The translations under genes were made by a program, and so were the position numbers. This document shows positions 3,627-21,392 of a stretch of 64,000 bases of DNA, one piece after another. The stretch is taken from the NCBI RefSeq assembly GCF_009931435.1, contig NZ_CP043414.1, one strand, 5' to 3'. Under the pieces are notes generated by a model, which saw only the letters and a list, made by a program, of their open reading frames with translations, ran no database searches and was not told the origin of the DNA. Source of the stretch: Escherichia coli. Its GTDB lineage: Bacteria; Pseudomonadota; Gammaproteobacteria; Enterobacterales; Enterobacteriaceae. How positions within the stretch are numbered: position 1 is the stretch's first letter; each line of letters opens with the position of its first letter.

Positions 3627-7809
<4,183 letters not shown>

Positions 7810-19187: not shown

Positions 19188-19381
19188 TTATCGTTATGAT
19201 CTACAAAGGCCACCAGCATAACAAATCCGTGGTCGGTGGCAAAAAAAGCAGATTTCGCTTATTAAAACTGCATATTGATTGAAGTTTGAATAAACGCGCG
19301 ATTTTTTTAAAAAGTTTGTTGACCTCAGGTCATGATTTCCCTAAATTAGCGCCCGTTCCAGCAAGACAGGAACGACAATTT

Positions 19382-19469
19382 GGTGAGGTGTCCGAGTGGC
19401 TGAAGGAGCACGCCTGGAAAGTGTGTATACGGCAACGTATCGGGGGTTCGAATCCCCCCCTCACCGCCA
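19382..19469 (+). tRNA. serX: tRNA-Ser (anticodon GGA), serX-type
   Basis: 88-nt sequence GGTGAGGTGTCCGAGTGGCTGAAGG...CCTGGAAA...GGTTCGAATCCCCCCCTCACCGCCA with long variable arm and encoded CCA. Confidence 0.95.
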
Positions 19470-19935
19470 TCTTTAAAGAAGAGCTCGTACGAAAGTACGG
19501 GCTTTTTTTTCGTATATTGCACACACCGGGGGGATGAGAAGCCCCGACAGGGGTTCGACAACTGGCGACAGCCAGTTGGACAGACCGTGAACGCAGTGAG
19601 CGGGCTGCCCGCAGGGCGAGCGAAGCGAGTCAATCCCCCCCTCACCGCCATCTTTAAAGAAGAGCTCGTACGAAAGTACGGGCTTTTTTTTTGTATATTG
19701 CACACACCGGGGGGATGAGAAGCCCCGACAGGGGTTCGACAACTGGCGACAGCCAGTTGGACAGACCGTGAACGCAGTGAGCGGGCTGCCCGCAGGGCGA
19801 GCGAAGCGAGTCAATCCCCCCCTCACCGCCATCTTTAAAGAAGAGCTCGTACGAAGGTACGGGCTTTTTTTTCGTATATTGCACACACCGGGGGATGAAA
19901 AGCCCCGACCGGGGTTCGACAACTGGCGACAAACT
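19461..19935. repeat. About 2.6 tandem copies of a ~181-bp unit, each carrying the serX 3'-terminal ~20 nt plus the terminator hairpin
   Basis: The string tcaccgccatctttaaagaagagctcgtacgaaagtacgggc recurs at about 19461, 19642 and 19823; copies 1 and 2 are near-identical, copy 3 is truncated and diverged; each unit also has an 8-bp palindrome caactggc-gaca-gccagttg. Confidence 0.85.
19482..19510 (+). terminator. Rho-independent terminator of serX (gctcgtac-gaaa-gtacgggc + T8)
   Basis: Hairpin followed by 8 T residues immediately 3' of the tRNA; repeated in each downstream repeat unit. Confidence 0.75.
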
Positions 19936-21392
19936 CAATCATCATCCTTGCAGTTGATAAGAATTTCTGCCTCTTTTACAACTATCTTATTACGTCCGGT
20001 TTCTTTCGCTTCATATAGTGCATTATCAGCCATTCGATAGATTTCATTCGGATTTAACGCACTTCCCTGAGTCACCACAGCGCCAATGCTAATCGTCACT
20101 TTTTGCGGTATGGCGTATTCAGGATTATCGCCTGTCAAACGCTCTACATTTGCCCTTATCCTTTCGGCTAAAACTTTCGCGCTTTCAGTATCGGTCTCCG
20201 TCAGCAAGACGCCAAACTCTTCGCCGCCAACGCGTGCTAAAAGGTCATTTGGTCGTATGCTTTTCCCAATGATGCTCACCACTGTTTTTATCACCTGATC
20301 GCCAACCGGATGCCCCCACGTATCGTTAACTTTTTTAAAGTGATCGATATCCATAATCATGACACAATAAGACGTTTTTTGGGCTGATGCTGATTGAGCC
20401 TTCAGTTCATTGAAAAAATAATTCCTGTTAAATATATTAGTTAATGGATCGCGATGGGCAATGTTCTTTGTTACTCGTAGCGCACTGAAAATATGGCACA
20501 TAAATATTACCATAACGGTTAATTTACTGACTACTTCAATAGTGCGGCTAATATACCAAGTGGACACACTATACCTGCTCATAAATAACAGAGAGATATT
20601 ATACAGCACGGCACAGAAAGCAATCACTGATACTCCATTCCAGATATCACAGCGTAAACCATTAAAGTATAGATTAACCAAAAGCAAGATTAACCACATG
20701 AAAATTATTATGGTAACATATGAGGTTTTCCAGACTACCTGACCATTTTCATTTGTTAACTCGGCAATATGTAAACTGTAGTCATCATAATGACTACTTA
20801 GCATGTGAGCAACTGCCGCCCCCCCATAAATAAAAAATAGGCTTATACACAATGTCATTTTTTTGGAAAAAAAACAGCGTTTCTTATTGTTTTCACTAAC
20901 TTTATTCACCAGCGCTAGCAATATTAACATGCACAAACTCATCTGACGAAACAAATAATAAATTGCAATATCATTTTGTACAACGCTGCTTATCAAATGC
21001 CCCTCAATAAATTGCTGAATGATAATGACAGTTTTAACAAAGTAAATCAAACAACTCAGAAACGCTAAACTAAGTATACAGTTTGAAAATTGCACACGAT
21101 CATAAATGAAATACAATTGCATGAAAATAAATGCAACGGTATCGATAAAAAATAAAGCAATCATAACCATTAGATAGGTTGATCGTGGAACAACCTCCTC
21201 AACGGTTGGCTGATTAAACCAACTATTTACCAAAACGAATGCAAGCCCAAACAATAAGCTCACCAATACAGTACTACTAATTCCCAAATAGTCTTTTTCC
21301 ATAAAGCTACACCAATCTGTAGGTTGTAGATCCCTTTCTGTCACTAATAGATATAAGAACTGTACTGTTGTCAATATAAAAATCCACCACAA
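19935..21392 (-). CDS. dgcT: Membrane-anchored diguanylate cyclase DgcT (YcdT), GGDEF domain
   Basis: 485-aa ORF beginning at a TTG codon; first in-frame ATG (MEKDYLG...) would give 455 aa. N-terminal multi-TM region plus C-terminal GGDEF with intact GGEEF motif. AT-rich gene. Confidence 0.88.
   Translation of the reverse strand: MWWIFILTTVQFLYLLVTERDLQPTDWCSFMEKDYLGISSTVLVSLLFGLAFVLVNSWFNQPTVEEVVPRSTYLMVMIALFFIDTVAFIFMQLYFIYDRVQFSNCILSLAFLSCLIYFVKTVIIIQQFIEGHLISSVVQNDIAIYYLFRQMSLCMLILLALVNKVSENNKKRCFFSKKMTLCISLFFIYGGAAVAHMLSSHYDDYSLHIAELTNENGQVVWKTSYVTIIIFMWLILLLVNLYFNGLRCDIWNGVSVIAFCAVLYNISLLFMSRYSVSTWYISRTIEVVSKLTVMVIFMCHIFSALRVTKNIAHRDPLTNIFNRNYFFNELKAQSASAQKTSYCVMIMDIDHFKKVNDTWGHPVGDQVIKTVVSIIGKSIRPNDLLARVGGEEFGVLLTETDTESAKVLAERIRANVERLTGDNPEYAIPQKVTISIGAVVTQGSALNPNEIYRMADNALYEAKETGRNKIVVKEAEILINCKDDD

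Follow-up and report, generated by a model that had tools for sequence, protein, structure and literature searches.

The repeats that follow the tRNA-Ser(GGA) gene serX in Escherichia coli very likely represent a serine-type RtT element that has been tandemly amplified, with units made of a tRNA trailer and terminator followed by an RtT core, a copy number probably set by recombination or slippage and a candidate RNA that would be produced by read-through. We studied the array in a stretch of 64,000 nt of E. coli DNA, hereafter the window. The element itself is already known, in that RefSeq labels RtT at serX in many E. coli genomes, although literature on serX together with tyrT, ycdU or RtT yielded no description of the serX repeats. 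Our analysis adds that the copies in the window lie just below the annotation threshold, that the serine branch is clearly different from the tyrT type, that the serine core is consistently found behind a terminator and that the family is apparently restricted to Tyr and Ser tRNA genes.

Results

Architecture of the serX Array

Tandem Repeats Finder locates one single array directly at serX, with a period of 181, 2.7 copies, 98% matches, no indels and a score of 927 (Table 1). The tandem ~181-bp periodicity described in a first-pass annotation of this DNA is thus upheld, with the earlier estimate of about 2.6 copies corrected to 2.7. The array starts 19 nt inside serX (53.8 bits with the Rfam tRNA model), the last 19 nt of the tRNA being the first 19 nt of the array, and this tRNA end (AATCCCCCCCTCACCGCCA) is found at 19451-19469, 19632-19650 and 19813-19831. 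Each 181-bp unit comprises the serX trailer with its intrinsic terminator, followed by a multi-hairpin core of ~125 nt that closes with the last 19 nt of the tRNA. The copy at the 3' end of the core is exact and contains half of the T loop, the 3' strands of T stem and acceptor, and CCA. The terminator hairpin with its run of eight T residues folds with -20.4 kcal/mol (z -5.2). Units 1 and 2 both harbor a palindrome (CAACTGGC-GACA-GCCAGTTG) and a segment GGGGTTCGA...AATCCCCCC; all parts previously assigned to the unit, namely terminator hairpin and T-run, palindrome, T-arm-like segment and tRNA end, could therefore be located.

Pairwise comparison of the units reveals a single base difference between units 1 and 2, in agreement with their initial description as near-identical. 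Unit 3 had been called diverged and truncated. It is indeed truncated, breaking off after 100 nt, but with just 3 substitutions and 1 deletion relative to unit 1 it has diverged very little. The array ends with caactggcgaca, 3 nt from the stop codon of dgcT, which is encoded on the minus strand. A consensus scan of the window detected no promoter-like site inside the repeat units. A promoter-like match (TCGACA, 18 nt, CATCAT) at 19916-19945 on the plus strand spans the array end and points antisense into dgcT; it is a consensus match only.

Table 1. Features of the serX locus in the window
Feature	Position	Strand	Basis
Promoter-like site upstream of serX (TTGACC, 17 nt, TAAATT)	19319..19347	+	consensus scan only
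serX, tRNA-Ser(GGA)	19382..19469	+	ARAGORN, Rfam tRNA
Tandem array, 181-bp unit, 2.7 copies	19451..19931	+	Tandem Repeats Finder, pairwise unit comparison
serX intrinsic terminator, unit 1: GCTCGTAC-GAAA-GTACGGGC + T8, hairpin extended by A/T pairing	19475..19510	+	fold; serW has the same trailer
RtT core copy 1, closing with tRNA 3'-end copy 19632-19650	19514..19650	+	Rfam RF00391, fold, covariation
Terminator copy, unit 2	19656..19691	+	terminator scan
RtT core copy 2, closing with tRNA 3'-end copy 19813-19831	19695..19831	+	Rfam RF00391, 41.7 bits
Terminator copy, unit 3, loop GAAG in place of GAAA	19837..19872	+	sequence, array register
Truncated RtT core copy 3, break in palindrome loop (caactggcgaca/aac, slash at the junction)	19876..19931	+	sequence, alignment with tyrT units; junction phase common to EC958
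dgcT (GGDEF protein), neighbor, not part of the element	19935..21302	-	ORF list; RefSeq at the corresponding locus of WL297 and EC958

The Repeat Units Belong to the RtT Family

An Rfam scan matches both complete cores to the RtT family (RF00391) over the entire model (positions 1-130 of 130), each with 41.7 bits and an E-value of 2.9e-6. This family was initially recognized in the 178-bp repeats behind tyrT. These scores miss the gathering threshold of 45 bits, a cut-off that is an annotation convention rather than a biological feature. The units at the serX locus of the K-12 strain DH5a reach 46.3 bits and are thus above the cut-off, and RefSeq labels the four units after serX in DH5a 'RtT sRNA'. 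Two positions distinguish the DH5a units from those of the window, namely a trailer base close behind CCA (atattt/atcttt) and a base in the first-hairpin loop (GACC/GACA). A one-base change is accordingly enough to place genuine RtT copies below the Rfam cut-off, and because of this score the serX copies remain unlabeled in the standard annotation of genomes such as WL297. The RefSeq note attached to labeled serX copies (e.g. at 4215-4894 of the DH5a locus, L001) reads 'processed from tyrT transcript', which cannot be right for serX.

Like other RtT elements, the cores follow a tRNA gene in the same orientation, and they close with the 3' end of that very tRNA plus CCA. Alignment of serX and tyrT units outlines two shared blocks, G-ATGAGAA-..CGAC..-GGTTCGA and CCCG.AGGG.GAG...CGAGT.AATCC. 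Invariant in both are GATGAGAA (with one variant each way), CGAC, GGTTCG and AATCC, in addition to the tRNA end, whereas the serX and tyrT versions of the ~60-nt trailer are unrelated. The first-pass annotation had likened the array to the tyrT repeats, which also reiterate the tRNA 3' end. This proved correct but understated: the full-model Rfam match, the shared blocks and the RefSeq labels in K-12 together indicate, at the level of sequence, that the units are homologous to the tyrT repeats and do not just resemble them. Other, weak Rfam matches, to sX4, Thr leader and MicC, score far under the respective thresholds and coincide with the tRNA or the terminator. A short open reading frame (MRSPDRGSTTGDSQLDRP) is located at 19534-19590 and again at 19715-19771 on the plus strand. 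It starts at GGATGAGAA with the ATG that also begins the 29-codon tpr, and is similar to the latter in its first ~9 residues only.

RtT Cores Follow Tyr and Ser tRNA Genes in Many Genera

We scanned one genome per species with a fixed core pattern, GRTGAGAANCNNCGACNNNGGTTCGA, and obtained at least 120 loci with at least 184 cores, numbers that are bound to this pattern. The matches listed come from many genera of Enterobacterales, including Citrobacter, Enterobacter, Salmonella, Klebsiella, Pectobacterium, Serratia and Pantoea, and from Pseudoalteromonas. In at least 105 loci, a distance of 59-72 nt (in one locus 96 nt) separates the tRNA from the start of the first core, with repeat copies following at steps of ~175-182 nt. 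Among the matches listed, all cores for which the retrieved DNA contains a tRNA are downstream of tRNA-Tyr(GTA), tRNA-Ser(GGA) or tRNA-Ser(GCT), the sole exception being an uncertain ARAGORN call (L120). The restriction to Tyr and Ser tRNA genes looks real for these pattern-bound matches, because the pattern would also admit many other tRNAs with a GGTTCGA T loop.

The cores differ according to the tRNA they follow. Those from Enterobacterales, among the matches listed, close with the 3' end of their own cognate tRNA, and the stems vary with the host tRNA: GAAGG/CCTTC after tRNA-Tyr, runs of G and C after tRNA-Ser(GGA), and AGGG/CCCT after tRNA-Ser(GCT). The spacer between tRNA and core differs as well. 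Among the same matches it contains a hairpin and T-run in 41 of 46 cases for Ser(GGA) and in all five for Ser(GCT), while Tyr spacers are unstructured, with a mean fold energy of -2.6 kcal/mol. In Pseudoalteromonas, which belongs to a different order of Gammaproteobacteria, the first two core hairpins are kept after tRNA-Ser(GCT) (L006, L040, L056, L080, L102 and L108). Most of these copies have no tRNA 3'-end copy, which is present in L102 only. It follows that the family is old and that the tRNA-end copy is not one of its universal features.

The second tRNA-Ser(GGA) gene of E. coli, serW, is identical to serX both in its tRNA and in the 43-nt trailer that contains the terminator (2508-2640 of locus L129, from an O157:H7 strain); no RtT core follows serW at the E. 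coli locus examined. Several other genera have RtT arrays at both of their Ser(GGA) loci (e.g. L043, L046 and L068).

Predicted Fold and Covariation of the Core

Folding of one unit, proposed earlier as a check for a tRNA-like or other stable structure, predicts a core with multiple hairpins and a free energy of -59.9 kcal/mol (z -3.8). The predicted outer helix pairs GGGGGGAU with AUCCCCCC and encloses several hairpins; its 3' strand is the T-stem strand derived from the tRNA. In the predicted first hairpin, which contains the T-arm-like sequence GGGGUUCGA, GAAxCCCC pairs with GGGGUUC. The remainder of the predicted fold consists of the 8-bp palindrome, two to three further hairpins and ~10 unpaired nt with the terminal CCA. 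According to this model, the apparent "split T arm" is two half-arms, each with a different pairing partner.

RNAalifold run on raw MAFFT alignments gave a poor consensus, owing to the G and C runs and the variable middle hairpins. We thus specified the structure by hand and compared pair counts in 30 distinct serine-type cores with those in shuffles and with slid pairing partners. The tested structure was drawn from the same sequences as used in the test, which weakens the following comparison: 93.8% of all cells are paired in the 30 cores, as opposed to 90.4% after shuffling and 32-51% with slid partners, and 12 pairs are changed on both sides, compared with 6.0 +/- 1.0 after shuffling (none of 500 shuffles reaches 12) and 1-4 with slid partners. 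The double changes map to three hairpins (the palindrome, the third and the small 3' one), none of which is tRNA-derived. Compensatory changes across genera are also seen in the terminator stem. Independently, a preprint on covariation-based folding has reported that RtT is supported by covariation, a tandem G-A motif included (10.1101/2020.02.04.933952).

Copy Number and Junctions Vary among E. coli Strains

Using one unit as query, we found part of it in 4,979 of 5,426 complete E. coli genomes and at least one full unit in 3,359. Matches occupy 1 to 13 places per genome with a median of 2, counts that slightly overstate unit number, as they probably include the serW trailer. The array is hence not invariant in E. 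coli but ranges from no full unit to about a dozen. We count 3.4 copies in MG1655, four full units in DH5a, 1.6 copies in WL297 and 0.55 in EC958, and find the same junction phases. In one type of junction (cacacaccggg/tgccc), the array is followed by ycdU; strains of this type contain no full unit (NADC1036 and O157:H7), three (MG1655) or four (DH5a). In the type represented by the window (...caactggcgaca/aac), the array abuts the dgcT stop codon, and full units number none in the B2 strain EC958, where the array is decayed, one in WL297 and two in the window. A close match to the window junction is present in 41 genomes. As the junctions are fixed and the number of units is variable, whole units were probably gained and lost, by unequal recombination or slippage. 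Whole lineages, such as O157:H7 and B2 strains like EC958, have no complete unit. Strains and lineages of this kind are common, and the array is thus dispensable. Owing to its variable length, the locus could serve to distinguish strains and may mislead short-read assembly.

The K-12 derivatives DH5a (4215-4894 in L001) and MG1655 (L005) are one whole unit apart, with four and three full units, respectively; either the laboratory lineage has changed recently or the assemblies differ. K-12 has ycdU, ymdE and an IS3 between serX and dgcT, and none of the three is found in the window, both as stated in the first-pass annotation. The IS3 is inserted 10 nt past the dgcT stop codon in K-12. The last ~14 codons of dgcT are of a type shared by the window (19935-19985, minus strand) and EC958, which is wholly unlike that of K-12 (2180-2245 in L005). 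The rearrangement between the locus types thus breaks inside the 3' end of dgcT, and not at its stop codon. Strain MB19 carries a P4-type integrase directly to the left of a 4.5-unit array (1616-5871 in L128). Downstream of this array, a DUF2726 gene and phoH replace dgcT-pga, so that the right end of this locus has been rearranged in another, more extensive way.

We also considered a mobile-element origin of the unit and rejected it. Apart from a tRNA-end match, the unit does not occur in any of 50,697 phage records, and the 31 plasmid matches are mostly to megabase-size or very large non-mobilizable records.

Discussion

Several other explanations for the array have to be weighed. The tRNA-end copies could be scars or spare attachment sites from repeated integration and excision of islands at serX, as the first-pass annotation had offered by way of an alternative. 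serX is a real integration site: a CP4-like island directly follows the tRNA end in one strain, and in other strains a residual 14-bp tRNA end, located next to a P4-type integrase, leads into the trailer or the array. A 14-bp direct repeat corresponding to the last 14 bp of serW and serX is reported to border O islands 43 and 48, and this core of the attachment sites used by P4-family integrases (these two islands and the SRL island; PMC3064760) is repeated in every serX unit. The 14-mer (CCCCCTCACCGCCA) occurs three times in the window, one copy being located at 19637-19650. The repeats are however not limited to the recombination core but extend over 181 bp, and site-specific recombination would not leave ~160 nt of conserved, structured sequence between the cores. 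The same interior recurs behind Ser and Tyr tRNA genes of many genera, and it shares homology with the tyrT repeats. The ORF list of the window contains neither integrase nor cargo, as had been noted before. A chimeric probe joining the end of the RtT core to the start of an island, made for one island type, detects an island behind an internal copy in none of the 5,426 genomes, and the probed island junctions all start at the true tRNA end. With a conserved interior across genera and no island at an internal copy, the repeats are not scars and, as regards the one island type probed, do not serve as attachment sites, and we regard their origin from integration events as highly improbable.

It is even harder to credit that the repeats encode a protein, be it from the long minus-strand ORFs or as a small peptide resembling Tpr that begins at the conserved GGATGAGAA. 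The minus strand does contain ORFs of 94-149 codons, the 18-codon ORF (MRSPDRGSTTGDSQLDRP) shares its start ATG with tpr of the tyrT unit, and a hypothetical protein is called here in a few RefSeq records. Minus-strand stop codons, however, fall in one frame per unit, and because 181 = 3 x 60 + 1 the stop frame rotates from unit to unit, such that each frame stays open over two to three units. The openness is thus a result of the repeat period, and no NCBIfam family matches these ORFs, which we consider artefacts, as the first-pass annotation had suspected from the same arithmetic. The residues that the short ORF has in common with tpr are just those fixed by the conserved RNA hairpin, and species differ by changes that preserve base pairing, not by codon-wise ones. 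K-12 also does not support a coding role: the array interval of MG1655 holds no annotated feature, and the locus tags b1030 and b1031 are missing there, having probably been ORF calls inside the repeats that were since withdrawn. We judge it unlikely, though far less so than a coding function, that the serX array is a neutral by-product drifting in number by recombination, even if family members elsewhere may be structured RNAs. In favor of this reading, all cores lie behind a strong terminator, the units contain no promoter-like site, copy number varies from none to about a dozen with large lineages devoid of a full unit, and overexpression of the tyrT RttR RNA gave no phenotype in one screen for biofilm formation, motility and fimbriae (PMC4606813). 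On the other hand, the order of tRNA, terminator and RtT is kept across many genera, and both the core and the terminator stem display compensatory changes. The near identity of units within one array could stem from recent amplification or from selection.

We thus favor a tandemly amplified serine-type RtT element. The array would have arisen and changed in length by unequal homologous recombination or replication slippage, initially between the 19-nt tRNA end and its copy, and later between whole 181-bp units. The candidate RNA would be made solely by read-through of the serX terminator, since the units contain no promoter-like site, and little of it may be made, judging from the position of the copies behind a strong terminator. 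By analogy to the RtT RNA from tyrT, the read-through RNA would be trimmed back to each CCA by the enzymes of tRNA 3' maturation. It might then partly mimic the 3' half of a tRNA and bind a tRNA-recognizing factor, a step that we put forward as speculation. As summarized in PMC3318445, the release of RtT as a stable RNA from a tRNA primary transcript is reported for tyrT only (Bosl and Kersten, 1991). The summaries of the 1991 tyrT work in PMC7542023 and 10.1101/2024.07.17.603846 mention a suggested influence on the starvation response.

The tyrT-tyrV RtT or rttR repeats of 178 bp (RF00391; Bosl and Kersten, 1991, via PMC3318445) are the closest known system, with a core homologous to that of the serX units. 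In both cases the core starts ~60 nt after the tRNA and closes with the last 19 nt of the cognate tRNA plus CCA, the unit is tandemly amplified with a period of ~180 bp, and the predicted multi-hairpin fold has a closing helix whose 3' strand derives from the tRNA. In contrast to the tyrT repeats, the serX stems are built on the T stem of tRNA-Ser with its G/C runs instead of that of tRNA-Tyr, the middle hairpins are different in number and sequence, and every unit contains an intrinsic terminator, which the tyrT spacer does not have. The two types also differ in their RF00391 scores, 41.7-46.3 bits for serX and 133-138 bits for tyrT units.

RNAs from tRNA spacers and trailers, such as 3'ETS-leuZ, are non-tRNA parts of a tRNA transcript that are released by tRNA processing. 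RtT differs from 3'ETS-leuZ in that it lies beyond the terminator of the tRNA itself, is far more structured and mimics the tRNA 3' end. RtT is not known to have a base-pairing target or a link to Hfq. The T-arm-like sequence and the acceptor-type 3' end with CCA are reminiscent of tRNA-like domains of the tmRNA type. Unlike in tmRNA, the halves of the T arm are split in RtT and have other pairing partners, and a full acceptor stem is missing, as the predicted fold leaves ~10 nt at the 3' end unpaired; nor is RtT known to be charged.

For genome annotation, the assignment to RtT accounts for a repeat that generates false ORFs. For the biology of RtT little changes, as the element has long been known. 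Its placement after Tyr and Ser tRNA genes only (among the matches listed), the position of the serine type behind the tRNA terminator and stems that track the host tRNA are modest leads to its role. They allow for a more far-reaching proposal, which we offer tentatively and hold to be less probable than not by some distance: serine-type RtT may form a distinct and largely unrecognized branch of an old family, with stems re-tuned to each host tRNA, which would imply selection on an RNA resembling the 3' half of the tRNA. In that case, serine RtT could be a regulated read-through product that binds a tRNA 3'-end factor, for example in tRNA processing or in a starvation response. tRNA-Tyr and tRNA-Ser share a long variable arm, and its link to RtT may be a coincidence.

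Many hairpins in the core (19560-19640 in the window) and in related cores have three-base G-N-A loops between C and G, as in CGCAG, CGAAG and the heptamer GCGAAGC. G-N-A loops closed by C and G are unusually stable in single-stranded DNA.
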